A program made the position numbers and the translations under genes. A stretch of DNA of 64,000 bases, taken from an uncultured Candidatus Saccharibacteria bacterium. GTDB taxonomy: Bacteria; Patescibacteriota; Saccharimonadia; Saccharimonadales; CAZICT01. Below the pieces are notes generated by a model. It searched no databases and was not told the DNA's origin. It was given only the letters and a program-made list of their open reading frames with translations. Positions 17,701 through 58,663 of this stretch are shown in pieces. Position 1 is the stretch's first letter. Each line of letters starts with the position of its first letter. The stretch covers positions 76,922-140,921 of the forward strand of contig CAZICT010000002.1 in assembly GCA_964537935.1 (NCBI GenBank), in the 5' to 3' direction.

Positions 17701-17748
17701 CGGTGTTATTTCTTCTTTTGCTGTTCGTTCATCTTGGTCTAAAGACAC
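14719..17748 (-). CDS. 1009-aa membrane protein with a C-terminal M15B/VanY-type D-Ala-D-Ala peptidase domain
   Basis: One TM segment near residue 110 (LLIGVSLGLTLIGGLMMLISFLLPF). The C-terminus has YRSYDEQKAL, SNHENGEALDF (SxHxxGxAxD) and ESWHWS (EWWH-like), the zinc-peptidase M15 motifs. Confidence 0.75.
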   Translation of the reverse strand: MSLDQDERTAKEEITPEFLRETTGINAAEEKAMEDRASEGATPSSSESKKILSGDEIAAAESNANKDTSEPLTSKAEKESANIPPSNWKANLKARQNSYLKSKGLLIGVSLGLTLIGGLMMLISFLLPFKVTAIIEQIEQRVGQVPEYAIERRLEYYMNRYLIIRSLESSGVLDFNNESDRFTYLGNGVFSTLYTNWRGANLESKLIQEYNVRLVPKIPQGEILGRQHTRPTNWQLEDLGVDSSSDRRYRDLDSREARKFINEFTRSETKSRQIIRRHHMRSILKKYYGVNRWKPFEKTRNNTREKYIEKKTAFKQYAVRQTVGRVSERYGLYLDCLLEGGEKCDDIRKGATDNDRVTRTNEDGETVDAEGVEAADNADRNSVSSSVDEAVEAIDGDGVGDNLAARIKNIGLRKVLASFAAGIGLVDAIAQIQGAVDSGALSIVVYDSLAHQYAGFGTTILSAADQQRAGEDMDPEDARVLAETFDNFEESPVYQAAYWEPGSVSALAQISRDCDDNPNTPPEILEPGELVCPNKKLLQDRAGFTSAPWWSAIDRIGDLYRGTIGGIVGAINDAVSAITSALGIDEVIQQLLEVTGLDDVIASAVETALDWFLGFSITGAEEGGDAYEALYAGIAVKNSSLGGSVGGDRSDTIGGQYLSDAEVASIQAEMYNNYKYELKNRSFFARYFSPSVKESIVGNFAMHMPVTAVNMTQNMASFFNPSTFLSSFSSIAGIFTSHSQALPPATLSNPYGVINSGYPTDHEIFTANNGTGMTEEEVNEKYMCDESYDRRLEANPEGVFDVGRPDDMPFDVNINADPCLLEEAVEEAGSMHFTGEYDEGIDTSTSTPTSIESGTDTSDLSCPDDPEISDGGIAQKYGPGKVLLYEIRLCIIRGNVSFDVNVSIAQNVINLLRAAEDDGVNLTAGAYRSYDEQKALRIAHGCPNDNTPSRACSPPTARPGTSNHENGEALDFRNCSSGSTCFNWLSANAANYGLYNLPSESWHWSVNGR

Positions 17749-17781
17749 AAAGGGTTACTCCACTTCGGTGTTCAAGGGTCA

Positions 17782-19695
17782 TTATACCCCAGGGTACAAA
17801 CGGTTTTCCAGGTCAATCGTTCCTTGAGGCTGGTTAAATTCGCCTTGCTGTTCAATTTGTTGAACCTGCTGAGGATTAGTGGTAATGAGCCCGGTTTCTG
17901 TTGGACTGGCTACAATCTGAATGTGGACGTGGTTTTGACCGGCAAAGAATAATCCTTGGCCAACCGGAAATTGACTTAGACGCTTCTTTTCTTCGGCGGT
18001 TAGTTTGAACACCTCAGACAACACATCAACCGCACTCGGAGACTGTTTTAAGAGTATTTGCATCGACGCGTTGGCTACGATTGCTCGGCCCATGCGGCTA
18101 CCCATAAAGTCTTCCACATCCTGCGTAATAGTTGTAATACCAAGGTTATATTTTCTTGCTCGTTTCGCCAGGCTAAATAGGAAATTAGCCGAATCTTCAT
18201 ACTTCATCAGCTGCCAAGCCTCGTCAACTACCAGTATTCGTTTCTTTTGATCGGTCTTTGTCTTGTTCCATATGTAATTAAGCACAATATACATCGCTAC
18301 CGGCCTTAGTTCATCTTCGAGGTCGCGGATGTTAAACACCACTAAAGGATTATTAATGTCGATATTGCTTTGCTGGGAAAAGATGCCGGCAAACGTACCG
18401 GTAGTATATTTACGCAATCGCTGGGCAAGTTGCGGCCCGTTGCCTCCCATATGCAGCAACGTGTCATAAAGGTCATTAATTGTCGGCGGCGGCGAGTTAT
18501 GAGTCAAGGGATCGTTGGTGATGCCTGCTTTGGCATAAGTTTCAATTAGTGCCGCATCCAGGTCAGCCTCTTCTGAAGGTGCAAGAGTTGGTGCAACCAC
18601 ACCGTTGCCTCCAGCGGCGGCCATCTGCGCCTGCGCACCACCCATCATTAGTCGTAAAAGTCCGTGTAGGGTTATAAGGTTACTTCTAAGAGCGTTATCG
18701 GCTTCTTCGGTGTCAACGACTTTTGGTATGTCAAACGGATTGATGCGGGTGGCCGAGTTAAGACTTAGTCGTACGTATGCGCCACCGACTGCCTCGGCCA
18801 TACGTTGATACTCATTTTCAGGGTCGATGATGAAGACTTCCGTACCGAACATCATACTGCGCAAGGCTTCAAGCTTAACAGTGAATGATTTACCTGCACC
18901 GGACTTGGCAAAAACAACCGAATTACCATTTTCTAAGGAGAAACGGTCAAAAATTACCAATCCTGAATTGTGCATATTAATGCCGTATAAAATTCCATTT
19001 TCCTGACTGAGCTCGGCTGAAGTAAACGGAAAGCTGGTCGATAGCGCGCCGGTGCTGAAGTTGCGCCGGATTTGCAGCTGATCAACAAAATGCGGAATGG
19101 TGCTGTTAAGTCCTTGCTCCTGCTGCGAGGTAGCGGGTTTTGAAAAGATTGATTGCTGGCCAAGCATTGACTCAACCTTGTGGGTAATAAACTCAAGCTC
19201 ATCTTTGCTTTCAGCGTAGAGCGTAAAGTAAAAACCAAAGCGGAAAAAGCGCTCCTCGCCGACCTGAAGTTTGTCACGCATTTCTTCGGCATCGAGAATG
19301 GCAGCTTGCTTACCCGGATCCCTGACGCGGCCCTTTTCTGCCTCTATCTGGATGCCGGCCTCAAGTTGGGAGACTTTTTTACGCAAGTTTTCTAATACGA
19401 CCTGGCTTTCCACCGGGTAAATATAAAGCGACATATCCATCACCTCATCGAGATTGACCATACTTGATAGCCATCCAGTAAAGACCTGGCGCGGATAACC
19501 ATAGACGTAATAGGTCCGGGCAATCCTGGTACCAAGTTGAAAGTGAGTGCCAAAAAACTCTATAGAACTCGGGGCAATAAAGTCACGCAGCGCTGTAATG
19601 CCTTTTTGAAAGGCAGCTTGGACTTCCTGCTCCTCACGGGCGCGTTGTGCCTGTGCTAAGGCAATTGGATCAACCGGCTGATTCTTTTTAGCCAT
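17782..19695 (-). CDS. virB4: VirB4/PrgJ/TraE-family type IV secretion ATPase
   Basis: 637-aa ORF. Walker A VVFAKSGAGKSFTVK and Walker B RILVVDEAWQLM. The N-domain pattern is ARTYYVYGYPRQVFTGWLSSM...SLYIYP. Confidence 0.85.
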   Translation of the reverse strand: MAKKNQPVDPIALAQAQRAREEQEVQAAFQKGITALRDFIAPSSIEFFGTHFQLGTRIARTYYVYGYPRQVFTGWLSSMVNLDEVMDMSLYIYPVESQVVLENLRKKVSQLEAGIQIEAEKGRVRDPGKQAAILDAEEMRDKLQVGEERFFRFGFYFTLYAESKDELEFITHKVESMLGQQSIFSKPATSQQEQGLNSTIPHFVDQLQIRRNFSTGALSTSFPFTSAELSQENGILYGINMHNSGLVIFDRFSLENGNSVVFAKSGAGKSFTVKLEALRSMMFGTEVFIIDPENEYQRMAEAVGGAYVRLSLNSATRINPFDIPKVVDTEEADNALRSNLITLHGLLRLMMGGAQAQMAAAGGNGVVAPTLAPSEEADLDAALIETYAKAGITNDPLTHNSPPPTINDLYDTLLHMGGNGPQLAQRLRKYTTGTFAGIFSQQSNIDINNPLVVFNIRDLEDELRPVAMYIVLNYIWNKTKTDQKKRILVVDEAWQLMKYEDSANFLFSLAKRARKYNLGITTITQDVEDFMGSRMGRAIVANASMQILLKQSPSAVDVLSEVFKLTAEEKKRLSQFPVGQGLFFAGQNHVHIQIVASPTETGLITTNPQQVQQIEQQGEFNQPQGTIDLENRLYPGV

Positions 19696-19713
19696 TGCTT
19701 CCCTCGTGCATTA

Positions 19714-20622
19714 TCATAGTTGGAGTTCCCTGTTTAAGTTGGGCTGCTCGGCATTGCCTTCACCTTTTTGGACAATCGGCACTGACAAATCATCGAAGTT
19801 CTTTAACTGCTGCCTGGTAGCGGTGTCTGGATTGTAGCTGTCGTAATAAAGCTCGATCAATTCCTGTGTATCAAGCGGCAAGCCCGGTATTCCGCATTGC
19901 TGTAGACCACCTAAGACGGCTTGTATACGATTACGAAGTTCGTCCTTTGCTTTAGCCAGGTCAGCTTCGTTGATAGTTACGTGCTGCTCCTTCGTGTTGA
20001 ATATTCCTTTCAGACCGCTGAAGAAATTCTTACTTTGCGTAATAGCCTTCTGAATGTCAGTGACTGGAAAATATGGAATAACTACATAGAACTTTTTATC
20101 CATGATGTTCGTTTGTTGTGACAAGCCATCAATAAAACCGATATAATCTTCCATCAGCAGCGATAGCAGCATATTGTCGTGTTCAGTCCGGATCTTATCA
20201 AGCTTCTCTATATAAGGACGCAGGTCCACCTTTTGCGAGCGGACGAATATTTGCACCGGAAAATAGAGTGAGTTCAAAAAGCCCTGATAGCCATACTCTA
20301 CCCCTTCTCTTTCCTGAGGACTCATAAGGTCGAAGTTGATAGATTTGACCATAATTACTGACCGAAACGAACCGTCGTTCATAATGACGATGCCATCGCG
20401 AATCTCAGCTATTTGCAGCGTGTTCTGAGTACTGTTCGGGTTGGTTTTAACAGCTACTGGTTGCGCTGGTGGTTGAGGGGGTTGGCCGGGTGGCACGTAC
20501 GCATTTCCAGATACCGCCGGTTGAGGGCCGTAAGCACCATACGCAGACTGGTCTGCCGGTAAAGCAGCAGACGGTACAGGTTGCGTTCCGTTAGATTGTT
20601 GATTAGCGGAATTTGGATCCAT
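19714..20622 (-). CDS. Hypothetical T4SS-associated protein: P/Q-rich N-terminus plus a VirB4-N-domain-like region with no ATPase
   Basis: 302-aa ORF with no Walker motifs. IAEIRDGIVIMNDGSFRSVIMVKSINFDLMSPQEREGVEYGYQGFLNSLYFPVQIFV and ...ELIELYYDSYNP resemble VirB4 N-terminal blocks by eye. Confidence 0.5.
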   Translation of the reverse strand: MDPNSANQQSNGTQPVPSAALPADQSAYGAYGPQPAVSGNAYVPPGQPPQPPAQPVAVKTNPNSTQNTLQIAEIRDGIVIMNDGSFRSVIMVKSINFDLMSPQEREGVEYGYQGFLNSLYFPVQIFVRSQKVDLRPYIEKLDKIRTEHDNMLLSLLMEDYIGFIDGLSQQTNIMDKKFYVVIPYFPVTDIQKAITQSKNFFSGLKGIFNTKEQHVTINEADLAKAKDELRNRIQAVLGGLQQCGIPGLPLDTQELIELYYDSYNPDTATRQQLKNFDDLSVPIVQKGEGNAEQPNLNRELQL

Positions 20623-20658
20623 AGTTATTGTTTGCCCACCTAAGGATTGGGATACGAT

Positions 20659-21756
20659 TTAATGTAGCGAAATCACCACCTCGTCATTTGGTGGATCCTT
20701 CTTGCGCGACTTTTCTGCCTGCCGGGCAATGGTCGCCACATCTAAATCGTCATTGTTAGCAAGTTCCAGTATAGCAGGGTCAGCTTTAGGTGTCACTGGC
20801 GCTTGTGCTTGAGTATTCGCCTGTGTTTGCTGATTGGGCTCAGCTTCTGCTTGCTCGGACAGAGGCTTAATAGTCCTAAGGTTTGAGTTTGCTTGTTCAG
20901 ATCTTTCTTGTGCGTCTTTTATCTTTTGTATTAACGCTTCTTCGTCTTCTGTAGGCGATTGACCGGCAGTCTTATTAACCGGCTGTGGTTTGACCGACTG
21001 GCTGCCATCAAATATTCCATAACCCTGCTCGGTTATCTGTGAGGCATCCGGCTGGTTCAGGAACCAATAGTCCGAAGGCTGGGTTGACGATTGGTCTTGT
21101 TGTTCTTGCTGTTGCAAGCGTTGCAATAACTGCTTGCGCCGAGCTTGGTCCGAAGTTTGCATAAGTTGGCTCAAGTGTTGAGCGGTAGGATTGCCCTGTT
21201 CGTCAAGCATATCTGCAGATACATAGTCATCTTCTGCGACCTGTTGAGGAAAGAATGCTGAAGGATCGACCAATCTATCAGAGTCACCTTGGTTCTGAAA
21301 GTATGCAGGCTGGGCAGACATGTTGACGCTGACGTTTTTGACGATCCAGCCACGACTGTCAATTGTATTAGCTAACGCCTCTAGGCGACTCTTAACTTCC
21401 TCTTTCGTATAGCCCTTGGTTAAGTTTTTCTCTTCTTTTTTAGGCGCGGTAATTGTAACTAGCTGTTTTGCCCCTGATTGGTCCCATACACGCTTACGCG
21501 GCTTTATAAAAAACCGGATTTTAGCAAGCAACCAAACTTCACTTGACTGATCTTTGCCAAAAGGCGCCGCCAGTAGTCCAAAAAAGATAATGACCGGCAA
21601 AAAAGGAACTGCTAAAAGCGGTTGTACCAGTGCGAGCTGAAAAGCTACATAACCGGTAATCAATACAATAATCGCATAAATAAACTGCTTGAGCGTCAGT
21701 GGCCCAAGTAGCTTATCTTCTGCTTCGATGTCTTGTAAAACTTTATACGTCGCCAT
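20659..21756 (-). CDS. PrgI-family (VirB3-like) membrane protein with a long Q/E-rich C-terminal extension
   Basis: 365-aa ORF. The N-terminus MATYKVLQDIEAEDKLLGPLTLKQFIYAIIVLITGYVAF plus a second TM segment is the PrgI-family hallmark. Confidence 0.7.
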   Translation of the reverse strand: MATYKVLQDIEAEDKLLGPLTLKQFIYAIIVLITGYVAFQLALVQPLLAVPFLPVIIFFGLLAAPFGKDQSSEVWLLAKIRFFIKPRKRVWDQSGAKQLVTITAPKKEEKNLTKGYTKEEVKSRLEALANTIDSRGWIVKNVSVNMSAQPAYFQNQGDSDRLVDPSAFFPQQVAEDDYVSADMLDEQGNPTAQHLSQLMQTSDQARRKQLLQRLQQQEQQDQSSTQPSDYWFLNQPDASQITEQGYGIFDGSQSVKPQPVNKTAGQSPTEDEEALIQKIKDAQERSEQANSNLRTIKPLSEQAEAEPNQQTQANTQAQAPVTPKADPAILELANNDDLDVATIARQAEKSRKKDPPNDEVVISLH

Positions 21757-21763
21757 GCATCAA

Positions 21764-24373
21764 TTAACTTTCTTCACCTGGTGCATCTGCTCTATCTTGT
21801 AGGGGAGCTGCATTAGGGTCATTTGCATATTGTGGGCGTGAGCTATAGCGAATAATATCATCAAGATGTCGCTTACCAGCTTCTGACATAGGCGCATTTA
21901 TATCCTTAGGTATTTCTAAGGCAGTATTCACGCTGTCTCTTACTGCTAGAGTGTCGCTAACCAAACTATTAACCAGTTGTTGATTTTCGGGGGATGCATA
22001 TGATTTATTAGCATCAAACTGGTTAATTTGCCCAATTACGCGCTTTGCTCTATCGGCTGCAACTTTCCATTCTTCTGATCCCTTTACTGTGCTCTGCATA
22101 ACCCCATAGCTTTCTTGAAGTTCTCGTTTGAGGGTATTGCTATGACTTTCCATAGCAGCTGGTTTGCCGCGAAGTGTGGTAACCGGGTCCTCAGCCCTAG
22201 TAGCTTTAAGTTCAGCATCATGCAAGGGTTGCCTGTCTTGAAGGGGTATTGAACCCGTGGGGCCCATCTGGGCCTTGATTAGACCAATAAGATCCCCTGC
22301 GCCTGGGGCGAGGTCATTACGACCAACCTTTTTAGTTAATGCATTTGCAAAACCTCCGAGTCTAGCTGCAGTATCTTCGCTTCCGCCAGCAGCATGTGCC
22401 ATAACCATTGACATTTGTTCCAAAGTAGACATTGCTCTCTCACCGTTTTTACCATCAGTGCCCTTAAAGCCAGTTCCTGTTAGTATCAAGCCTTGTGCAG
22501 CAGCTAGTTGCTGTGCCCTCCCCAGTCCAATTGTTGCCTGGGCTTGTTTAGCGTGCAGTTCTGCGTCTTTTTTGGTATATCCAAACATAGCCTGTAAGTT
22601 TTTTACAGACTCCATGTAGCTCGTACCCGCCACTGCTGCGCGGAGTATGTCATCGTTATCTTTTTGGGCTTGATACTCTGCAGATTTCATTACATCAGCA
22701 ACTACACCTGCTTGCAGTGTATCAATTGCAACACGTCCCTTATCTCCAAAGCCAAAATTACCCTTCATGCCTACCCCAACACCCACACCTGTTCTCCTAA
22801 TTCCTCTCGCTATAGCGCCGCCGACTTTTCCACCACGCTCCTGATAGCGTTGCCCTGTTCTGAAGTCTTGCCAGTTTTCGCCCATTTTCGCGCCACGATA
22901 TTTCTTCATACGGTCAAACAACCCTCTCTCTCGATCATTTACCATACCAGCGATATTAGAAAACACTCCTCCGGCATACTTAAAAGCTGCAGGTATCAAA
23001 AAGTACGGACCTACATAGGCTGAAATTTTAATTAAAGTTAGTCCAAGCCCATCAGGACCTGCGGCGTCACTGCTCAAAGAAGGCAAGTCCGACACGACTA
23101 AAGCAAAAGATTTGCCTGCGGCGAGCAGCACAACCACCAAAGGGTATAACATTAAAAGTTTCCAAAACGCTCCCCACCACAATTTCCATAACTTATCATT
23201 GCCCGGAAAAATCCATGACAATATCGCCAGCGGTGCTAAAATCATCAATGCAATAATTAGCGCCTGCCTAAATACCAGTAAAGTATATCCTATAAATAAG
23301 CCTACAGCGGCAACAAGTGCATAACTGAGCACTATTCCTATTGATAGCAGTACAACACCCGTTCCTGCCAAAATAATGCCTATGAAGAGTGCCGTGTTAT
23401 CGCCCGAAAGACTTGGTGCGAAGACATCTGAAAGAGTAATGCTAGCAAAGCTACGTGAGCCATCGGTAAAGCTACTCATTATCATACCACCAAGCCCATT
23501 TCCTATGGCGTTGCTGAAGCTGACTATAAACTTGGTTATCTCAAATGACAAAGCGATAAATATAGTCGCTACAACTAGGCGTGGTAAAGCTCGCTTGACC
23601 GTATATGCACTTACAAACTCAAATCCCAAGGCTGTACCAATAACCATTACCAGTAGTACTGGTACTAGAATTATATAGGCAAGGTTCCTGAGTCTTTCCC
23701 ATGCAGTGTGTAGACGAGGGTTTTCGTCTTCATCAATATACTGATCTGGCACCTGCAAGACGTTATTAATTGCCCTATCAAGGCCAGTAACAGCACGATC
23801 CAACTGTCTCAAAATAGGACAAAGCAACCACCCAAGATCCTCTACGTTATCCTGACAGGATTCCGGCTGAGAATTGTTAAGGTTTTGCTCTGCTAGATTC
23901 TGTAAAGATTCCTCAAATCCATCTGATACATTAACCTCAACAGGAGCAATAATATTCGTACCATCATCTGCACGCAAACATAGGTACCGTCCTGCGGGTG
24001 TGCCATCTTCAGAGTATGCTAGAAATAGCTTATGGTGTGTACCGCTCTTGCCAAATTGGAATACCGCTACATTTCCTTCTATTTCCAACGAAGCACCGCA
24101 TATTTGTACACTATCACCGCTATTCTCTACGGTAGAGACTGTCTCATAGGTATATATTCCAGGAACCTCTGTAGCTTGTCGGGAATCATTACTAAAAGTA
24201 TTATCTCCTTCCACTTCAAACTGGACACCTTCGAGTTCTCCGTTGCTAACCTCTGAGGACGTAGTAGCAGTGTAGGGTGTTTGTGCGCTAGCTTGTTGAG
24301 TAGTGAAAAGTGACAAACTAAAAAATTGGGCTATAAATATCCCAAAAAGCACAAGCTTTTTGTTTGCGGTCAT
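21764..24373 (-). CDS. VirB6/TrbL/PrgH-like polytopic channel protein (signal peptide, ectodomain, about 6-7 TM segments, ~400-aa cytoplasmic tail)
   Basis: 869-aa ORF. Signal-like MTANKKLVLFGIFIAQFFSLSLFTTQQASA, a central block of hydrophobic helices (residues ~230-480), and a position immediately upstream of PrgI-like and VirB4. Confidence 0.65.
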   Translation of the reverse strand: MTANKKLVLFGIFIAQFFSLSLFTTQQASAQTPYTATTSSEVSNGELEGVQFEVEGDNTFSNDSRQATEVPGIYTYETVSTVENSGDSVQICGASLEIEGNVAVFQFGKSGTHHKLFLAYSEDGTPAGRYLCLRADDGTNIIAPVEVNVSDGFEESLQNLAEQNLNNSQPESCQDNVEDLGWLLCPILRQLDRAVTGLDRAINNVLQVPDQYIDEDENPRLHTAWERLRNLAYIILVPVLLVMVIGTALGFEFVSAYTVKRALPRLVVATIFIALSFEITKFIVSFSNAIGNGLGGMIMSSFTDGSRSFASITLSDVFAPSLSGDNTALFIGIILAGTGVVLLSIGIVLSYALVAAVGLFIGYTLLVFRQALIIALMILAPLAILSWIFPGNDKLWKLWWGAFWKLLMLYPLVVVLLAAGKSFALVVSDLPSLSSDAAGPDGLGLTLIKISAYVGPYFLIPAAFKYAGGVFSNIAGMVNDRERGLFDRMKKYRGAKMGENWQDFRTGQRYQERGGKVGGAIARGIRRTGVGVGVGMKGNFGFGDKGRVAIDTLQAGVVADVMKSAEYQAQKDNDDILRAAVAGTSYMESVKNLQAMFGYTKKDAELHAKQAQATIGLGRAQQLAAAQGLILTGTGFKGTDGKNGERAMSTLEQMSMVMAHAAGGSEDTAARLGGFANALTKKVGRNDLAPGAGDLIGLIKAQMGPTGSIPLQDRQPLHDAELKATRAEDPVTTLRGKPAAMESHSNTLKRELQESYGVMQSTVKGSEEWKVAADRAKRVIGQINQFDANKSYASPENQQLVNSLVSDTLAVRDSVNTALEIPKDINAPMSEAGKRHLDDIIRYSSRPQYANDPNAAPLQDRADAPGEES

Positions 24374-41982: not shown

Positions 41983-42048
41983 GGGTGTTTTTCCTTGTTC
42001 CAACTGTCATCATATCACTTATCCAACAACGGAGGTTAGATTGTAAGT

Positions 42049-42115
42049 TTTCACGTGAAATATGACAAACAAACTCAAAGCTTTTCACGTGAAAGCTTCG
42101 TGTTTTTTTGTCATA
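42049..42115. promoter_or_regulatory. Twin 12-bp palindromes TTTCACGTGAAA, the second nested in a ~55-bp hairpin (candidate operator or leader structure)
   Basis: TTTCACGTGAAA occurs at 42049-42060 and 42083-42094. The outer arms tatgacaaacaaac (42061-42074) and gtttttttgtcata (42102-42115) pair at 13 of 14 positions. Confidence 0.5.
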
Positions 42116-42262
42116 ACTCATTTTTCCTAGAAGGTACAGCCACTTCGGGCTAAGGATTTGTTTGTTTGATTACAGTTTATCAAAAGTCCGGCCACTTGTC
42201 AGTACCGGTATACGCTGAGGAAACTTTATAAACTGAAGTGGTTACCATAAACAGGGATATTT

Positions 42263-43413: not shown

Positions 43414-44475
43414 TCACATACTTAAGCTTGGGGCTATATCAAGTGTTGTTGGGTCGGCTGTCGGTTGCTCCAGTTGGGCATGGTAGCAGCCCAGGGCGGC
43501 GATCATAGCACCGTTGTCGGTGCATAACTTAGGGTCAGAATACTCTATAGCAGCTGGCAATCTTTCAGCAAGTTGTCTGCGTAATTCTTGACTGCTAGCT
43601 ACGCCACCACCTATAACCACGCTCTTTGGACGAAACTCCTCATAAGCTTGGACGGTTTTATCAACGACAGTTTCTATTGCGATATTTTGAAAGCTGGCTG
43701 CTATATCGTACTTGTGAGCGTCTGAGAGCCGCTCAGCGATGCGGAAAGATTCAAACCGATGATCTTCCCCAATAAGCTCTTGGGCGGTGCGTAAAACGGC
43801 TGTTTTGAGCCCAGAAAAGCTAAAGTCGTAAGGGTTGCTTAGTCTGGCCTTCGGAAATTCGAATGCAGAAGGGTTGCCATTTAAGGCCGCCTTGCTGATG
43901 CTGGGCCCACCAGGGTAGGGAAGTCCTATAATTTTTGCCACCTTATCAAAAGCTTCGCCGATAGCGTCATCTCGGGTTTGGCCAAGTAACCTGTAATTAA
44001 AGTGATTTTGCCACAAGACTAGTTGTGAGTGGCCGCCAGAGACTATCAGACCGAGCATCGGAAACTCCGGTTGACGGGACGGAAGTGTATAGCCCTGCAG
44101 CGAAGTCTCCGTTATGAAGTTAGCGTAAATATGCCCTTCAACGTGGTTTATAGCATACAACGGCTTATTGTTTATAAGCGCCAGCGTCTTAGCGGTTTGA
44201 ACACCGACCAGCAGACTGCCCCCCAGTCCGGCACCGTAAGTTACTGCAATTCCATCTACATCGCTCCACTCACAATCAGCATCTGCAAACGCTTGATTGA
44301 TAACAGGAGTGATAGCTTCGATGTGACTTCGGGCAGCAATTTCCGGCACCACACCGCCGTACTGGGCATGCAAATCCATACTCGTGGCAATCACGTTGGA
44401 TAATAATCTATTCCCATCTTCGACTATTGCGGCTGCCGTCTCATCACAGCTGGTTTCTATACCGATAATTTTCAC
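43414..44475 (-). CDS. tsaD: tRNA N6-adenosine threonylcarbamoyltransferase TsaD
   Basis: KIIGIETSCDETAAAIV, GVVPEIAARSH and VSGGHS motifs. I prefer the GTG at 44475, giving MKIIGIETSCDET; the track uses the TTG at 44517. Confidence 0.92.
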   Translation of the reverse strand: MKIIGIETSCDETAAAIVEDGNRLLSNVIATSMDLHAQYGGVVPEIAARSHIEAITPVINQAFADADCEWSDVDGIAVTYGAGLGGSLLVGVQTAKTLALINNKPLYAINHVEGHIYANFITETSLQGYTLPSRQPEFPMLGLIVSGGHSQLVLWQNHFNYRLLGQTRDDAIGEAFDKVAKIIGLPYPGGPSISKAALNGNPSAFEFPKARLSNPYDFSFSGLKTAVLRTAQELIGEDHRFESFRIAERLSDAHKYDIAASFQNIAIETVVDKTVQAYEEFRPKSVVIGGGVASSQELRRQLAERLPAAIEYSDPKLCTDNGAMIAALGCYHAQLEQPTADPTTLDIAPSLSM

Positions 44476-44608
44476 TATGTCATAATAGCAGAATAGGGAT
44501 GAACCGAAAGATATCAAAATAACTACATTGACAAAAACACAATAATAGTTTAATATTAACGCATGATATCTCTGGTTGAGTTATCTCCCAGTACGGTATC
44601 AGTCCCTT

Positions 44609-45156
44609 GAGAAAGCGTATAGTTCTATGCCATTTCAGGGTAGGATGTCTGTGCACCGGACTAGCAGTGCGCACACATCCTATCCTGAGATACAGGATAC
44701 GGCAAGAGGAGGGTGCGAAGTATGCGTACTTACTGTCGTTCGGCCAATCGACGCGCGACGACCTTTGAGCTCGGCCTGGCATTGGACGAAATGGCAACCC
44801 CGGACTCTGTCTTCCAGTCAAGGTACGAGGACATCGAAGCAATTTGGCGTGAGCAGCTCGTCGACGATGCTGACCAGCCGATAGATCTGAGCAAGGTCAT
44901 GGTCTTCGACGACTTCGTCGACAGCTTCGGCAGCGAGCCACCCCGTTGGCCATTCTCTCGCGAGGATGGACCCTTCCACCTGGAAGACCCGATGGCCGAA
45001 AGCCTGGACATCCTGGATGAGTTCAATGAGGACTGGCTCTACGAGGAGTCGGTGCTCTAGGCGGGAAGGCAGGTGTGTGGTGCACTAAATACATCGGTCT
45101 AACCGACTTATTGCACCATACACCTCCCTCCGCTTCATTTTTCTATACGCTTTCTC
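44609..45156. other. 548-bp compositionally foreign cassette bounded by a perfect 14-bp inverted repeat
   Basis: gagaaagcgtatag at 44609-44622 and its exact reverse complement ctatacgctttctc at 45143-45156. Inside are a 19-bp imperfect hairpin (44638-44685), a GC3-rich ORF, and a 14-bp hairpin (45071-45084 / 45112-45125). Confidence 0.45.
44722..45060 (+). CDS. Orphan acidic protein encoded in GC3-rich, foreign-looking DNA
   Basis: GGAGGG lies 8 nt before the ATG at 44722. The ORF is 112 aa, and roughly three quarters of its codons end in G/C by hand count, versus about 37% in the first 30 codons of adjacent murE. Several overlapping ORFs on other frames are typical of high-GC DNA. Confidence 0.6.
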   Translation: MRTYCRSANRRATTFELGLALDEMATPDSVFQSRYEDIEAIWREQLVDDADQPIDLSKVMVFDDFVDSFGSEPPRWPFSREDGPFHLEDPMAESLDILDEFNEDWLYEESVL

Positions 45157-45211
45157 TCTTTCTTTATACATGTTTAAGGCTCGGCGCTAATATACCCGTA
45201 TACTAGTTATT

Positions 45212-46570
45212 ATGAATCCAAAGCGCTTACTCAAAAAAATTATTCCTTTATCGGTTTTTAGAATTATTGAACCAACCGGACACTTGGTAGAAGCGATGCT
45301 GCTCCACGCCCGGGCCGGCTTTCCGCTTCGCGGCGTCAGAGTAATCGGCGTTACGGGCACCAATGGCAAAACCAGCACCGCTTTCTTAATCCATAAAATG
45401 CTCACCGAGGCCGGTTATAAGGCTGGCCTAATGACAACCGTGGCCTACGGAGTCGGGAGCGATATTAAGCCGCAAGTTGCCCACATGACAAGCGTCTCGG
45501 TGCCGACGCTCTTAAAAAGAGTCAAAGAGATGAAGGCCGAAGGTATGGATTGGCTGGTGCTAGAGACAACCAGCCATGCATTGGCACAGCATAGGGTATG
45601 GGGTGTCGAATATTCCGTTGCGGTGCTCACTAATATCACCCATGAACATCTTGATTATCACGGATCCTTTGAGCGTTACCGGCAAGCTAAGCGCAAGCTT
45701 TTTATCCAGACCAACCGAAACAAAAAAGGGCTACAAACAGGTATTGTCAACGCAGACGACCCTTATGCCGAGGAGTTTGCTGCTGCCATAAAACACCCTG
45801 TTTTTTATGGACAGACTGATGCCGATGTAAGAGCGACTGGTATTTCGCTGTCACCGGCCGGCAGCACATATAAAGCGGTTACTGATGATGAAACCTATGA
45901 CATTAGCTGTCATTTACCAGGCAGCTTTAATGTTAGCAACTCTCTTGCGGCGATTGCTGTTGGGCGGGTGCTTGGTCTGAGTAAAGAACAAATTGAGCAG
46001 GGAATTTCGGCACTAAAAAATGTCGAAGGCCGCATGGATAGAATTGATGAAGGCCAGGACTTTGACGTGATTGTAGATTACGCGCACACGCCGGATAGTT
46101 TTGAGAAGCTGCTTGGCGACATAAAACCGATGGTCAAAGGTAAATTAATCGTAATGTTCGGTTCGGCCGGCCGCAGAGATGAAGCTAAAAGGGCAGTTCA
46201 AGGGGAGTTAGCCGGACACTATGCTGATGAAGTAGTAGTTACCGAAGAAGATGACCGTGATATTGACGGCCAAGAAATCATGGAGCAAATTGCCAAAGGG
46301 GTTGAGAAGGCCGGCAAAACGAAAGATAAAGACTTGTTTTTAGTTCATGACAGAACCGAGGCCATAAGCTTTGCAATCAACCGAGCTAAAAAAGGTGATA
46401 CCGTGATGTTGCTTGGCAAAGGACATGAAAAAGATATTTTACGCCCGGGACCGAAAGCCGCTGAGCTACGTCATTTGCCGCAAGATGATCACAATACCGA
46501 CCGCGTCATTGAATTTCCTTGGGACGAGGTCGCAGTCGCCCGCCAAGCTCTTAAGTCATTGCAAAAATAA
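45212..46570 (+). CDS. murE: Mur ligase, MurE-type (UDP-MurNAc-L-Ala-D-Glu : diamino-acid ligase)
   Basis: GVTGTNGKTSTAFLIHKML, NADDPYAEEF, DYAHTPDS, and GKGHE in a 452-aa ORF. The substrate-specificity motif region reads EEDDRD rather than the DAP-type DNPR. Confidence 0.8.
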   Translation: MNPKRLLKKIIPLSVFRIIEPTGHLVEAMLLHARAGFPLRGVRVIGVTGTNGKTSTAFLIHKMLTEAGYKAGLMTTVAYGVGSDIKPQVAHMTSVSVPTLLKRVKEMKAEGMDWLVLETTSHALAQHRVWGVEYSVAVLTNITHEHLDYHGSFERYRQAKRKLFIQTNRNKKGLQTGIVNADDPYAEEFAAAIKHPVFYGQTDADVRATGISLSPAGSTYKAVTDDETYDISCHLPGSFNVSNSLAAIAVGRVLGLSKEQIEQGISALKNVEGRMDRIDEGQDFDVIVDYAHTPDSFEKLLGDIKPMVKGKLIVMFGSAGRRDEAKRAVQGELAGHYADEVVVTEEDDRDIDGQEIMEQIAKGVEKAGKTKDKDLFLVHDRTEAISFAINRAKKGDTVMLLGKGHEKDILRPGPKAAELRHLPQDDHNTDRVIEFPWDEVAVARQALKSLQK

Positions 46571-46597: not shown

Positions 46598-46873
46598 ATG
46601 GAAGAAAAAGGTATTAGATTAGACGCGCTGGTAGCGCTGTTAAACGGACAAAATTCCGAGCTTGCTGATGATTGTAAAAAAGCTGGAAGGCTTAGAGAGC
46701 TTATCAATGAACGTGGAGAAGATCCGGAAACTGATATTGATCATGCTTTTGCACTTGGTCGTATCAGCGGCAAATTTGAAGTTATTAATGCATTTGCGGC
46801 ACTCATAATGACAGAGAGTTTTGAAAATGTACATGGTATCTCGGTTGAATCTCTGGCTCAGGAAGAAAATTAG
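46598..46873 (+). CDS. Hypothetical small acidic protein
   Basis: 91-aa ORF with no recognisable motif. Confidence 0.5.
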   Translation: MEEKGIRLDALVALLNGQNSELADDCKKAGRLRELINERGEDPETDIDHAFALGRISGKFEVINAFAALIMTESFENVHGISVESLAQEEN

Positions 46874-46952
46874 ATATAACATCTAATTGACATAATTATA
46901 ACTTTATGTTAACATTAAAGTGTTCAATAAAAATAAAAAAGGAACACAAAAA

Positions 46953-47222
46953 ATGTCAGAAAAATTAGATATAGACGTAAAACTAGATCTTCTAGAGGAA
47001 AAGAAAGCGCTAGAGGATATGGAGGCTTCCGCTTCTCCAGAAGATGAAGCAACTCTTGGTGAATTACGTGGCGAACTGGACGAAAAAAGAAGGGCAGCCG
47101 GACTCATAGGAGGTACAGCTATAAAGACCTATGAAGTAGGCCCCGATGGAGTCGTTAATTTTAATCGTCAACCAGGAGAAGCACCTGACGAAGGACCTTA
47201 CAAGGGTGGTCGCCGTGCTTAG
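46953..47222 (+). CDS. Hypothetical small acidic protein
   Basis: The ATG at 46953 has AAGGA 9 nt upstream and gives 89 aa (MSEKLDIDVKLDLLEEKK...). The track start at 46920 is less likely. Confidence 0.5.
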   Translation: MSEKLDIDVKLDLLEEKKALEDMEASASPEDEATLGELRGELDEKRRAAGLIGGTAIKTYEVGPDGVVNFNRQPGEAPDEGPYKGGRRA

Positions 47223-48079: not shown

Positions 48080-48262
48080 ATGAGCTTAGAAGTGTAAATC
48101 GGGCTTGGAGATGGTTTTTTATAAAATGGAGGCGCTATATAAACTGCCTGCAACATCTTTTGAAAAAACCAGGACCAAGCCCGGATCCCGGACGAGCGGG
48201 GAAGTGTTGAAGAAATGTCTTCTCGCAACGCCCGTCCGGGTGTCCGCTACAACTGAGTGAGC

Positions 48263-48586
48263 TCAGCGCAATGCTGGCTGGTTCACGTAGGAGACCTTCT
48301 TGTCCCGCCCACGCAGTGGCTTCCGCTTGAGGGCGATTGCCTTGCTTGTTACCATCTCAAGGTAGTACCTGCGGAGCTTTTCGTAGTCCTCATCGCTGAG
48401 TTGCCCCCGCTCGACCCTGATGGTGACGAACGTCTCACCGGAGTTCTTGTGCTGACGAAAGCTGACGTGCAGCTGTTCGTTGCCCTGAAGCTCTGTGATG
48501 AATTCCTCGAACCTGGATTCAGGTATCGAAGTGGCGTTGAGCCTGATTGAGCCGTCGCTTGCGAGTCTTGCTTCAATCTTTGGCAT
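48263..48586 (-). CDS. Orphan protein encoded in a second GC3-rich, foreign-looking segment
   Basis: The ATG at 48586 (MPKIEARLASDGSIRLNATS...) has AAAGGG upstream and gives 107 aa. A 60-nt hand count (48361-48420) is 60% GC. Confidence 0.55.
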   Translation of the reverse strand: MPKIEARLASDGSIRLNATSIPESRFEEFITELQGNEQLHVSFRQHKNSGETFVTIRVERGQLSDEDYEKLRRYYLEMVTSKAIALKRKPLRGRDKKVSYVNQPALR

Positions 48587-50961: not shown

Positions 50962-50990
50962 TTGCATCCAAATTAGCACTTAGGTATTAT
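50962..50990 (+). promoter_or_regulatory. groESL promoter (TTGCAT-N17-TATTAT)
   Basis: TTGCAT at 50962-50967, a 17-nt spacer, and TATTAT at 50985-50990. It overlaps the first CIRCE element. Confidence 0.55.
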
Positions 50991-50999
50991 GAGTGCTTG
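50973..50999. promoter_or_regulatory. CIRCE (HrcA operator) copy 1
   Basis: TTAGCACTT-N9-GAGTGCTTG versus the consensus TTAGCACTC-N9-GAGTGCTAA. Confidence 0.75.
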
Positions 51000-51002
51000 A
51001 AG

Positions 51003-51029
51003 TTGGCACTCTCACTATTAAAGTGCTAA
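51003..51029. promoter_or_regulatory. CIRCE (HrcA operator) copy 2
   Basis: TTGGCACTC-N9-AAGTGCTAA, with one mismatch per arm. Confidence 0.75.
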
Positions 51030-51069: not shown

Positions 51070-51363
51070 ATGGCAGTAAAAGTTCAACCACTTGCAGATT
51101 ACGTGGTTGCGGAGCAAGAAGCCGCAGAAACGAAGACAGCGAGTGGTTTATATATTCCCGACAAGGCCCAGGAGAAGCCAAAAATCGCTAAGGTCTTGGC
51201 CGTCGGCCCCGGCCGTATTGGCGATGACAACGAACGAATCCCGGTTGAGGTAAAAGTGGGTGATCGGATTGTTTACGGTGGTTACAGCAATACCGAAATC
51301 AAGGTTGACGGCAAAGAATATATTCTAATTAAAGAAGAAAATATCTACGCAATCGTTAAGTAG
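51070..51363 (+). CDS. groES: Co-chaperonin GroES
   Basis: 97-aa ORF. VKVQPLADYVV...ASGLYIPD...VLAVGPG.... Confidence 0.97.
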   Translation: MAVKVQPLADYVVAEQEAAETKTASGLYIPDKAQEKPKIAKVLAVGPGRIGDDNERIPVEVKVGDRIVYGGYSNTEIKVDGKEYILIKEENIYAIVK

Positions 51364-51377
51364 AAAGGGAAGTAACT

Positions 51378-53030
51378 ATGGCAAAAAAAGTATTTTATGA
51401 TGACGATGCGAGGCGTCGAGTACTCGCCGGTGCGCAAATTCTCTACGATGCAGTTAAAACAACCATGGGGCCGAAAGGTCGCAATGTCGTTATTAGCAAA
51501 TCTTACGGTAATCCGACAGTAACCCACGATGGAGTTACAGTGGCTAAAGGTGTTGAAATTGAAGATAAAGACGACGAAACGCTTGGCTACAAAGTGGGGG
51601 CTGAATTAATCAAGCAAGCCGCTAATAAAATGAATGATGTTGCTGGTGACGGTACCACCACCGTAACTGTCCTGACGTACCACATCTTGAATGAAGCTAA
51701 CAAGCTGATTGCCGCCGGACACAACCCGATGCTGCTAAGAAAAGGATTAGAAGCGGCAGCTCACGATGTCATTAACAAGCTGTCAACCATGGCTGAAGAT
51801 ATTAAAGCCAAGAAATCCCGCGTTGCTGAAGTTGCAACCATTTCTGCCGGTGACGCTCAAATCGGAAACCTTATCGCCGATATTATCGATAAAGTCGGCA
51901 AAGACGGCGTGGTAACGGTAGAGGAAGGCCAGAGCCTGGAGCTTGAATCTGAAGTTGTTGAAGGTTTCACTTTTGACCGCGGCTTCGTCAGTCCCTACAT
52001 GGTGACCGACACTGCCCGCATGGAAGCAACCATGGATAAGCCGGCTATCGTCATTACCGACAAAAAGATCAGCTCTATCCAGGAGTTCCTGCCATTACTT
52101 GAAAAGTTGGCACAGTCAGGCAAGAAAGACATGGTACTGATTGCCGAGGATGTTGAAGGTGAAGCTCTCGGTACACTCATTCTTAATAAGCTCAAGGGTG
52201 TATTCAATACCTTGGCGGTTAAAGCACCGGCATTCGGTGACCGCCGAAAAGATATCCTAAACGATATAGCTATCCTTACTGGAGCAACGGTGATTTCCGA
52301 AGACCGCGGTATGACGTTTGAGAATGTAGATCTAAACGTCGTCGGAAGCGCCCGCAAAGTACTTGTTACCAAAGATGAAACTACAATTATCGAGGGTGCG
52401 GGTTCTGTTTCTGAGGTGCAGGCTCGGATTGAGCAAATCACTACGCAAGCCGCCGCCGCTACCAGTGAGTATGACAAGGAAAATCTGGATAAGCGCCGGG
52501 CAGCGCTCGGTGGTAAAGTCGCCGTCATTAAAGTCGGTGGTGCCACCGAAACTGAAATTGAAGAAAAGAAATTCCGGGTCGATGACGCCGTAGCCGCCGT
52601 TAAGGCAGCGCTGGACGAGGGCATTGTACCGGGTGGCGGCGTAACGCTCATTAATTTAACGTCTGCCGTTAAAAATAATAGCAGCGATGACGATGCTGTT
52701 GCGGCTGGCCGGCAATTACTGGTTAAGGCGCTTGAGCAGCCCTTTAGAATTTTGCTGTCAAATGCCGGACTTAACGCGGACGCGTGGTTACCGCAAGTCA
52801 AAGCCGGTAAAGCCGGTCAAGGCGTGGACGTGAACAAGCCCACGGCTCTGGCAGACATGAAGTCGGTTGGTGTAATTGACCCAGCTCGCGTAACCAAGGA
52901 AGCGATTCAAAACTCGGTTTCTATTGCCGGTACCAGCATGACTATGGGAGCGTTGGTAGTTGAGGTGCCTGAAAAAGAAGCACCGGCGCCAGCCGGTGGC
53001 GGTATGCCCGGCGGCATGGGAATGATGTAA
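51378..53030 (+). CDS. groEL: Chaperonin GroEL
   Basis: 550-aa ORF. AKKVFYDDDARRRVLAG...GPKGRNVV...AGDGTTT...GGGMPGGMGMM. Confidence 0.98.
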   Translation: MAKKVFYDDDARRRVLAGAQILYDAVKTTMGPKGRNVVISKSYGNPTVTHDGVTVAKGVEIEDKDDETLGYKVGAELIKQAANKMNDVAGDGTTTVTVLTYHILNEANKLIAAGHNPMLLRKGLEAAAHDVINKLSTMAEDIKAKKSRVAEVATISAGDAQIGNLIADIIDKVGKDGVVTVEEGQSLELESEVVEGFTFDRGFVSPYMVTDTARMEATMDKPAIVITDKKISSIQEFLPLLEKLAQSGKKDMVLIAEDVEGEALGTLILNKLKGVFNTLAVKAPAFGDRRKDILNDIAILTGATVISEDRGMTFENVDLNVVGSARKVLVTKDETTIIEGAGSVSEVQARIEQITTQAAAATSEYDKENLDKRRAALGGKVAVIKVGGATETEIEEKKFRVDDAVAAVKAALDEGIVPGGGVTLINLTSAVKNNSSDDDAVAAGRQLLVKALEQPFRILLSNAGLNADAWLPQVKAGKAGQGVDVNKPTALADMKSVGVIDPARVTKEAIQNSVSIAGTSMTMGALVVEVPEKEAPAPAGGGMPGGMGMM

Positions 53031-57601: not shown

Positions 57602-58663
57602 ATGAACAAGCTAAAAATGTACAATGTGGATATGCTCGATAACCTAAAATATATCCATGACCGTGATGCTCAAGATGCACTTGGTATAGCCGAGAAGCAA
57701 TGGCAGCAATTACAAACTCCTTATGACATACCTGAAATAACTGCCGATATTCACAATATAGTCTTCGCAGGCATGGGAGGCTCGGCTCTGGCAGCCCTTC
57801 TAAGCATGAGCTGGCCAGGTTATGATCGGCCATTCGAAATTTGCCGTAACTATGACATTCCAAGCTACGTGGATGGTAATACGTTGTTTATCGCATCGAG
57901 CTATTCCGGCAATACCGAGGAAACCTTAGAGGCCCTTAGTAAAGCCGAAGAAAAAGGCGCGGTTATCGCGGTTATCGCTAACGGCGGCATGCTTGTCGAA
58001 CGGGCAAAGGAGAAAAATTATCCCTTGGCAGTACTGCCTGATACCGGCCAACCGCGCTTTAGCGTACTGGCTGGAATCAAGGCCATAGTGTCGCTTCTTG
58101 AAAAGACGGGACTGATTAGTGCCGAAGATGCAGCAAAACAGATTAATGAGGCAAGTGATTTTCTGAAACAATCGGTTACGGCCTGGTTGCCTACAGTTCC
58201 GACAGCACAAAACCCTGCTAAACAAATTGCTCTTGAGGTTATCGGCAAATCGGCAGTTATTTATTCCGGACCGAAGTTATATCCGGCGGCCTATAAATGG
58301 AAAATCGGATTTAATGAGAATGCCAAACATGTGGCTTGGGTCAACCAATACCCGGAATTTAATCACAATGAATTTCTTGGCTGGTCGAGCCATCCCCCAG
58401 ATAAGCCTTATACGGTAATTGATCTTCGAAGCAGCCTTGAGCACGAACGGGTCCAAAAGCGGTTCGATGTCAGTCAGCGATTGCTTTCTGGGCAGAGGCC
58501 GGCACCAATCGTGGTAAATATAGAGGGACGAACGCTGTTGGATCAGCTCCTTTGGGCCGCTGCCTTTGGAGATTTTGTAACTCTCTATACCGCGCTGTTA
58601 AATGGTCTCAACCCGACTCCGGTCGACCTGATTGAGAACTTCAAAAAGGAACTGAATGCCTAA
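57602..58663 (+). CDS. Bifunctional phosphoglucose/phosphomannose isomerase (SIS-domain, archaeal/bacterial PGI-PMI type)
   Basis: 353-aa ORF. VFAGMGGSALAA and ASSYSGNTEETL are SIS motifs. The C-terminal ...NEFLGW...DLR region is typical of bact-PGI_C. Confidence 0.75.
   Translation: MNKLKMYNVDMLDNLKYIHDRDAQDALGIAEKQWQQLQTPYDIPEITADIHNIVFAGMGGSALAALLSMSWPGYDRPFEICRNYDIPSYVDGNTLFIASSYSGNTEETLEALSKAEEKGAVIAVIANGGMLVERAKEKNYPLAVLPDTGQPRFSVLAGIKAIVSLLEKTGLISAEDAAKQINEASDFLKQSVTAWLPTVPTAQNPAKQIALEVIGKSAVIYSGPKLYPAAYKWKIGFNENAKHVAWVNQYPEFNHNEFLGWSSHPPDKPYTVIDLRSSLEHERVQKRFDVSQRLLSGQRPAPIVVNIEGRTLLDQLLWAAAFGDFVTLYTALLNGLNPTPVDLIENFKKELNA

Follow-up and report, generated by a model that had tools for sequence, protein, structure and literature searches.

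How a small open reading frame (ORF) with an unusually high content of guanine plus cytosine (GC) came to lie between two divergent essential genes, tsaD and murE, and whether it is a gene at all, are the questions raised by a locus in an uncultured Candidatus Saccharibacteria bacterium. The locus is part of a 64,000-nt stretch of contig CAZICT010000002.1 (assembly GCA_964537935.1), which is called the window below and to which all positions, window-wide statistics and copy counts refer. An earlier sequence-only reading had described a GC-rich cassette bounded by a perfect 14-bp inverted repeat, and had proposed that it might be a small non-autonomous mobile element or a gene acquired from a high-GC donor, with the actinobacterial host of the epibiont as an attractive source. 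We favor another explanation: the region probably carries a lineage-specific orphan gene of foreign composition, organized as a self-contained monocistronic unit and placed in a recurrently variable slot between tsaD and murE. The ORF and its ribosome binding site, both found where the earlier reading had placed a GGAGGG-type site and a 112-aa frame, are as follows.

44722-45060, + strand: orphan ORF of 112 aa (ATG 44722 to TAG 45060), with coding-type periodicity and no homolog.
44706-44713, + strand: Shine-Dalgarno sequence GAGGAGGG, 8 nt upstream of the orphan ATG.

The composition of the ORF was compared with that of 40 long ORFs of the window, which served as the native reference. Its GC content is 0.578, with 0.63, 0.37 and 0.735 at the first, second and third codon positions (GC1, GC2 and GC3), in agreement with the earlier estimate that about three quarters of its codons end in G or C. 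In the reference set GC3 is 0.437 +/- 0.061, which places the orphan approximately 4.9 standard deviations above the window mean, and the 339-nt stretch of highest GC content in the 64 kb (0.593) begins at 44741, inside the ORF. Two GC counts formerly made by hand were reproduced, at 0.567 for 44761-44820 and 0.383 for 45241-45300 in murE. The rise in GC starts near 44560, approximately 50 bp to the left of the left repeat arm, and the GC-rich core extends from about 44560 to 45142. The GC content of the ORF shows a three-base periodicity (chi-square p=1.6e-7) with GC1 above GC2 and GC3 highest, the usual coding pattern, and the division into GC-ending and AT-ending codons differs from that of the native genes (Fisher p=1.5e-7). 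The orphan prefers GAC, GAG, TTC and GTC, whereas the native genes prefer GAT, GAA, TTT and GTT: the ratios are 11:4 vs. 128:209 for GAC:GAT, 9:4 vs. 128:269 for GAG:GAA, and 7:1 vs. 64:135 for TTC:TTT. An antisense ORF that shares the third positions has GC1 below GC2, which is atypical (by inspection of the frame table), and a translation rich in Ser and Arg; no Pfam family was detected in the alternative frames or antisense ORFs of the region. RNA folding of the ORF body is unremarkable (z=-1.0 in sense, +1.2 in antisense). From the periodicity, the codon pattern and the lack of unusual RNA structure in the ORF body we concluded that the ORF is, as far as its coding pattern allows one to judge, a protein-coding gene on the + strand, now or recently. 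A Shine-Dalgarno-like motif is found at 15 of the 46 window starts that were checked, and the starts of murE and tsaD lack one.

Homologs were sought by a word-indexed protein search of 5.8 billion clusters and by an exhaustive phmmer search over 1.84 billion representatives, which together cover approximately 15 billion proteins including the well-sampled Actinomycetota. In the former the orphan protein matched itself alone, and the latter returned the query itself together with two spurious repeat proteins and nothing else. No significant match to the protein was found in Pfam, PHROGs, PADLOC, NCBIfam or the PDB; blastn and tblastn searches of phage and plasmid sequences gave chance-level matches or low-complexity matches to acidic codons only, and scans of viral contigs with the protein gave zero matches. 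The orphan protein is a true ORFan. The search of high-GC taxa and phages that the sequence-only reading had proposed thus returned no homolog, a result that speaks against that reading.

We then turn to the place in which the gene is found. The flanking genes were identified by their Pfam domains, and the features of the two native flanks are listed here.

43414-44475, - strand: tsaD, left neighbor (PF00814, E=1.6e-86); likely start GTG 44475 (VKIIGIETS...), from which the N-termini of relatives align.
44483-44491, - strand: extended -10-like box TGCTATTAT in the native flank, 7 nt before the tsaD start, as read from the sequence.
45198-45204, + strand: murE -10 box GTATACT in the native flank, followed by AGTTATT and the start codon, 7 nt before ATG 45212.
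45212-46570, + strand: murE-type Mur ligase, right neighbor (PF08245 and PF02875), with homologs named diaminopimelate-adding ligase.

When 86 related loci with tsaD and murE as divergent neighbors were surveyed, the gap between the two start codons was below 100 bp in 43 loci (mode 21-25 bp), 100-300 bp in 5, 300-1000 bp in 8 and 1-5 kb in 30. The short gaps are centered on a conserved palindromic -10 box, AGTATACT, and a TATA[CA]T motif whose 3' end falls 6-8 nt (mode 7) short of the murE start was seen in 41 of 46 short-gap loci; among the other related loci it occurs in 51 of 76. The two genes would therefore share, as this spacing suggests, a bidirectional -10 box from which leaderless mRNAs are made. 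A similar (GT)ATAACAG motif occurs at the same tsaD-side position in relatives with occupied slots, and TGCTATTAT probably acts as the tsaD promoter in the present genome. In the larger gaps the ORFs are on the + strand, vary from lineage to lineage and match the genomes that carry them in GC content; DUF5663, present in two, was the only Pfam family found among them. The two nearest relatives (75% MurE identity) differ from each other in the same way, one with a 233-bp gap without a called gene vs. a 534-aa ORF in the other, and a family of 190-aa proteins precedes murE in several relatives at 70-72%. The orphan was compared with this family as a possible diverged member and rejected (hhalign probability 0.06%); the two are unrelated.

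The ancestral arrangement is thus one in which the start codons of tsaD and murE lie 21-25 bp apart around AGTATACT, and it is here that unrelated ORFs have entered, independently, in many lineages of the Saccharimonadales. A junction that is either 21-25 bp wide or filled with unrelated lineage-specific ORFs is a recurrent insertion slot. In blastn, tblastn and six-frame searches of 150 related loci and of the rest of the window no similarity to the orphan was found, and the intergenic DNA of relatives gave no alignment with the flanks in the window. In the presence/absence comparison suggested by the earlier reading the orphan was absent from every relative examined, the nearest of which stands at 75% MurE identity. 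As the native -10 boxes of both tsaD and murE lie outside the inserted DNA, the insertion spans at most 44492-45197.

The same arrangement was seen in other samples of the species. An identical tsaD-ORF-murE context is present in 10/10 contigs that were read with the exact protein, of which the eight shown represent 8 sequencing runs, and the strain contigs are 99.4-100% identical to the window; the recurrence of the context in independent runs at this level of identity argues that it is not a mis-assembly. The species itself stands apart: outside it, MurE identity does not exceed 75%, and scans of genomes and metagenomes end at 73-74% for full-length genes. Close relatives of the Mur ligase are all found in Saccharibacteria/Saccharimonadales genomes. 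The neighboring genes are valS, a femAB-type gene, tsaD, murE and a DDAH-type gene, and no recombinase, integrase or transposase domain was found among the genes called within approximately 6 kb.

The orphan gene appears to be equipped with signals of its own, as listed below. The two hairpins had been reported earlier in shorter form; both are present and have longer arms (25 nt and 22 nt) than was claimed.

44528-44556, + strand: sigma-70-like promoter TTGACA-17-TAATAT, presumed to serve the orphan gene (10/12 consensus matches).
44632-44691, + strand: 5'-leader hairpin, arms 44632-44656 and 44667-44691 (25 nt, 84% complementary) with a 10-nt loop.
45059-45142, + strand: terminator-like 3' hairpin, stem 45059-45135, arms 45067-45088 and 45108-45129 (22 nt, 86% complementary).

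The predicted promoter is located to the left of the left repeat arm, in AT-rich DNA resembling the native intergenic sequence (GC 0.17-0.33). Its -35 region (CATTGACAAAAACAC..., 44526-44547) is weakly similar to DNA just 3' of murE in several relatives (L010 5353-5374, L013 5380-5398, L053 5283-5312 and L090 4853-4874), which suggests a common native type of promoter and not a shared ancestry of the loci. The predicted leader is 159 nt long and rich in hairpins: 44563-44730 folds at -65.8 kcal/mol (z=-4.6), and in the predicted fold a helix formed by 44603-44609 and 44703-44710 covers part of the Shine-Dalgarno sequence. In strain L004 a G-U pair of the 5' hairpin is replaced by A-U at 44640. 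Downstream of the ORF, 45055-45220 folds at -47.3 kcal/mol (z=-4.8); the stem of the 3' hairpin is followed by CA and TTTTT (45138-45142), and the right repeat arm starts directly after this T-run. Hairpin and T-run together would make an intrinsic terminator, which a simple terminator scan missed because the loop is larger than the 3-8 nt accepted. With these putative signals the orphan gene looks like a self-contained monocistronic unit insulated from murE.

Long imperfect hairpins (arms of 26-29 nt) are also present at 42035-42120, between valS and the femAB-type gene, and at 48100-48183, between the DDAH-type gene and a second orphan; given these two further intergenic regions, we regard long hairpins as a general feature of the intergenic DNA of this genome. 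The two hairpins of the orphan unit are no more alike than shuffled sequences (p=0.28 on the same strand and 0.12 on the opposite strand), and an IS200/IS605-type element, for which the left and right hairpins are too dissimilar by these values, was rejected. The 5' hairpin has no second copy in the window and none in the viral contigs scanned, and the 3' hairpin likewise occurs once in the window. In Rfam no family reached its gathering score in the region, and at E<=10 only chance matches of microRNA hairpins to the 3' hairpin were obtained.

A single promoter-distal ORF followed by an imperfect palindrome also recalls the integron gene cassettes. The likeness ends there: no GTTRRRY is found on the + strand in 45040-45211, the sole RYYYAAC (45097) falls in the apical loop of the hairpin, a cassette array is lacking, as is an integrase among the genes called within approximately 6 kb, and a promoter-like site precedes the orphan ORF.

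The foreign composition and the absence from all relatives examined make lineage-specific acquisition the best reading. A GC3 of 0.73 with a GC content of 0.58 presumably indicates a donor of approximately 57-60% GC, not one of 65-72% as in typical high-GC Actinomycetota. In the course of events that we favor, approximately 580 bp (roughly 44560-45142) would have come from such an unsampled donor of ~57-60% GC and would have entered by illegitimate or transformation-type integration, not by transposition. Transcription would start at the native-type promoter (44528-44556) and pass through the 159-nt hairpin-rich leader, translation would proceed from the strong Shine-Dalgarno sequence, and termination at the 45059-45142 hairpin and T-run would insulate murE, which would retain its own leaderless promoter (GTATACT, 45198-45204). 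The 14-bp repeat would be a by-product of the insertion or the result of chance, and at most would close the unit in read-through RNA. Of the earlier proposal of a horizontal gain from a high-GC donor, the gain is supported by the foreign codon use and the absence from relatives, and the donor lineage is not, since none was found in any database searched.

A close parallel is found in single-gene genomic islets (ORFans) at hot spots of transfer, which likewise have an atypical composition and codon use, are confined to one lineage, and sit between conserved core genes in slots with a cargo that varies by lineage. Unlike such islets, the present site holds one gene only, its donor was not found, and there is no integrase, tRNA or phage remnant at the site; the slot, moreover, is the midpoint of a divergent promoter that both genes share and that measures only 21-25 bp.

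Several observations weigh against the explanation given above. Neither a donor nor a homolog has been found, and the evidence for a horizontal origin is limited to composition and absence from relatives. As the closest sequenced relative is remote (MurE 75%), the time of the gain and the borders of the insertion cannot be fixed. The DNA of the ORF is identical in 8/8 contigs, so that selection on the protein is not measurable. The promoter, the terminator and the leaderless starts are all predictions from sequence alone, and the structure model described below is of low confidence (pLDDT 50) and lends no direct support to the function proposed for the product. Finally, a perfect 14-bp repeat placed exactly in both flanks is locally improbable, and our dismissal of it may be wrong.

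The repeat is present as first described, and its two arms are listed here.

44609-44622, no strand assigned: left repeat arm GAGAAAGCGTATAG, without variation among the seven strain contigs that span it.
45143-45156, no strand assigned: right repeat arm CTATACGCTTTCTC, exact reverse complement of the left arm, polymorphic among strains.

The perfect 14-bp inverted repeat encloses 520 nt and gives a unit of 548 bp overall. When both flanks were shuffled, 0 of 3000 trials reached 14 bp, and the probability of 12 bp or more was 0.002. By chance the window should hold 0.23 perfect 14-bp inverted repeats within 1 kb; three were observed, one of them a control repeat of the same length (ATAACTGCCGAT-type, perfect over 14 bp, 57735-57748 and 58249-58262, 514-bp spacing) inside a conserved 353-aa SIS-type gene. 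On account of this equal-length repeat within a conserved gene and of the three repeats seen against 0.23 expected, we consider the repeat that flanks the orphan suggestive and not compelling. The arms do flank the ORF, as the notion of a repeat-bounded GC-rich cassette demands; the GC rise approximately 50 bp outside the left arm means that the repeat is not the exact border of the compositional island, and this part of the notion does not hold. The repeat core GTATAG/CTATAC is one mismatch off the junction palindrome GTATAC, a resemblance that may be a relic or chance.

Among strains the right arm reads CTATACGC--TCTC, with a 2-bp deletion, in 4 of the 7 contigs that reach it, all 4 from SRR363873xx runs; the repeat is therefore not conserved within the species, which again runs counter to the earlier reading. 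A search of the 64 kb with up to 2 mismatches allowed returned no copies of the 14-mer beyond its two sites, and among the related loci that were fetched it occurs in same-species contigs only, so that the further copies expected of a repeated element did not appear. At 38 occupied slots of relatives no flanking inverted repeat beyond chance was found, the longest being 10 bp.

What the gene product might do was considered from its composition and a structure model. The predicted protein is very acidic and without a recognizable match, as had been noted before, with an isoelectric point (pI) of 4.05, 28 Asp and Glu residues vs. 9 Lys and Arg residues, and a net charge of about -19. The charge is unevenly distributed: residues 1-13 are basic (net +4) and the remaining body is very acidic (net -23). 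The grand average of hydropathy (GRAVY) is -0.55 and the top 19-residue hydropathy is 0.47, which indicates no membrane segment. AlphaFold run without an alignment gave a mean predicted local distance difference test (pLDDT) score of 50 and a single helix, residues 30-45, in what is otherwise coil; a model at this level is too poor to justify either a fold search or a charge map. The product would probably be cytoplasmic and largely disordered. Because of its charge and disorder the protein might act as an electrostatic decoy or inhibitor that binds to a partner which is basic or interacts with nucleic acids, much as a DNA mimic, an anti-restriction protein or an immunity protein would, a function that we put forward as a tentative guess, itself rather doubtful. 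The orphan resembles Ocr, ArdA and the acidic immunity proteins in being a small acidic protein (112 aa, pI 4.05, net charge about -19) encoded on foreign DNA, and differs in that neither its sequence nor any protein family links it to them, the resemblance being compositional only.

Of the alternative explanations, the one that survives best, which we nevertheless consider unlikely, holds that the segment is a non-functional relic, foreign DNA with an open frame by chance and no protein of consequence. It is in keeping with the lack of a homolog, with the low-confidence, mostly coil model, and with the lack of polymorphism by which selection could be tested, and a second GC3-rich orphan 3 kb away shows that the genome does hold such pieces. 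A relic would not be expected to present a full set of signals at the correct spacing, namely a near-consensus promoter, a Shine-Dalgarno sequence 8 nt from the ATG, an intact and periodic frame of 112 codons and a terminator-like hairpin, or to persist in a reduced genome across every population that was sampled.

The repeat could instead play its part at the level of RNA. In read-through transcripts the arms would pair and close a 548-nt unit, which might stabilize or silence the message or serve as a processing stalk for a ribonuclease III-type enzyme, as in fold-back mRNAs. The predicted 566-nt RNA folds at -241.9 kcal/mol (z=-7.5), and the 14-bp helix closes both the minimum free energy and the centroid structures; the deletion allele still pairs over 8+4 bp with a 2-nt bulge (by inspection), and the leader helix partly covers the Shine-Dalgarno sequence. 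Against this, the right arm is placed just past the T-run of the terminator, and terminated transcripts would lack it. All of the extra stability comes from three repeats that were picked by eye, with an ORF body at z=-1.0; the lack of homologs leaves no covariation data, and Rfam offers no match. We therefore judge such a role decidedly unlikely. The hok-type type I toxin-antitoxin mRNAs are similar in being compact messages closed by 5'/3' pairing, as is predicted here, and dissimilar in that they encode a short hydrophobic peptide, not a 112-aa acidic hydrophilic protein (GRAVY -0.55), and in that the 3' arm of the present unit is beyond the predicted terminator.

The mobile cassette of the sequence-only reading fares less well. 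In its most explicit form it would be a non-autonomous element of the miniature inverted-repeat transposable element (MITE) type, with 14-bp terminal inverted repeats recognized in trans by a transposase encoded elsewhere and a passenger gene moved into the slot. A short 548-bp unit with a perfect 14-bp terminal inverted repeat is indeed MITE-like in outline, the presence of the repeat in both non-coding flanks is locally improbable, and the composition is foreign. Against mobility, the flanks (...CCCTT and TCTTTC...) show no target-site duplication at 2-12 bp and no direct repeat of at least 4 bp within 25 nt of the ends; the window holds one copy even with 2 mismatches allowed, and the related loci are without one; no transposase domain is found among the genes called within approximately 6 kb; the right arm carries its 2-bp deletion in 4/7 strain contigs; the GC island begins approximately 50 bp beyond the left arm; a flanking repeat beyond chance was seen at 0 of 38 other occupied slots; and a repeat of equal length is present inside a conserved gene. 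Unlike MITEs, too, the unit has a polymorphic repeat and carries a full gene with its own predicted terminator. With a single copy in the window, no recombinase called within approximately 6 kb and a degraded right arm, we regard the mobile cassette as very improbable.

Transfer from a high-GC actinobacterial host to the epibiont, as first suggested, is in our estimate a slim prospect. Host capture is favored by the GC-rich foreign composition and by the way of life of cultured Saccharibacteria, which grow on Actinomycetota as hosts and are able to take up DNA. Gene acquisition by Saccharibacteria is documented, the arginine deiminase system being one example (PMC8764695). No homolog was found in any taxon among the approximately 15 billion proteins, and the composition fits a donor of ~57-60% GC rather than 65-72%; the proposal of a host-to-epibiont transfer was accordingly not upheld. 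A combined form, in which the repeat-bounded unit would be a new passenger-carrying non-autonomous element or invertible cassette of Saccharibacteria that delivers host-captured DNA into the shared tsaD/murE promoter, we rate as highly improbable; if true, the orphans at 44722-45060 and 48263-48586 would be traces of the host genome and could be used to identify the host.

The least probable of all is an inverton, in which a recombinase would flip the 520-bp segment and change the expression of the orphan, tsaD or murE: the 14-bp arms around approximately 0.5 kb of intergenic DNA beside a gene start do fit the known anatomy of invertons (inverted repeats that flank short intergenic DNA by a gene start), but the contigs of 8 runs are all in one orientation (assemblies show the majority state only), no recombinase is called within approximately 6 kb, one population has a degraded repeat, and the -10 boxes of murE and tsaD both lie beyond the segment that would be flipped.

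Other features of the window were recorded. The second GC3-rich orphan (48263-48586, - strand) encodes 107 aa from ATG 48586, with a GC content of 0.55 and a GC3 of 0.72; it sits between the DDAH-type gene and the next gene and is absent at that position in locus L157, and in the word-indexed search of 5.8 billion clusters it matched only itself and showed no significant family match. Two small acidic orphans with an unusually low GC3 of 0.26 (46598-46873 and 46920-47222, + strand) follow directly after murE. They gave no significant family match, and neither was found after murE in the two nearest relatives, which indicates that the region downstream of murE is variable too. A cluster of type IV secretion or conjugation-like genes occupies 13469-24373 on the - strand, approximately 25 kb from the orphan, and includes the following members.

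17782-19695, - strand: TraG/VirB4-type P-loop ATPase.
20659-21756, - strand: PrgI-family protein.
13469-14746, - strand: CHAP-domain hydrolase.
14719-17748, - strand: 1009-aa protein with a VanY domain.

An inverted repeat, TTAGCACT...N9...AGTGCTAA, is present at 50973-51029, just 5' of groES/groEL (51070-53030), and we take it to resemble the CIRCE heat-shock operator.

The orphan itself is an ordinary lineage-specific acquisition of a kind common in bacterial genomes, and its practical impact is small. The acidic protein would be of interest only if it turned out to inhibit a nucleic-acid-binding protein of host or phage, and if the donor of either GC3-rich orphan were found in the same samples, it would provide a sequence-based clue to the host of this uncultured epibiont. 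The slot is of wider significance, as a precise point of recurrent gene gain in the middle of a 21-25-bp divergent promoter of two essential genes across Saccharimonadales, and it offers a tidy system for studying how reduced genomes take in genes with the neighboring promoters left intact. Of the two observations, the conserved palindromic -10 box, which also serves as a site of gene gain, lends itself better to reuse than the orphan gene.

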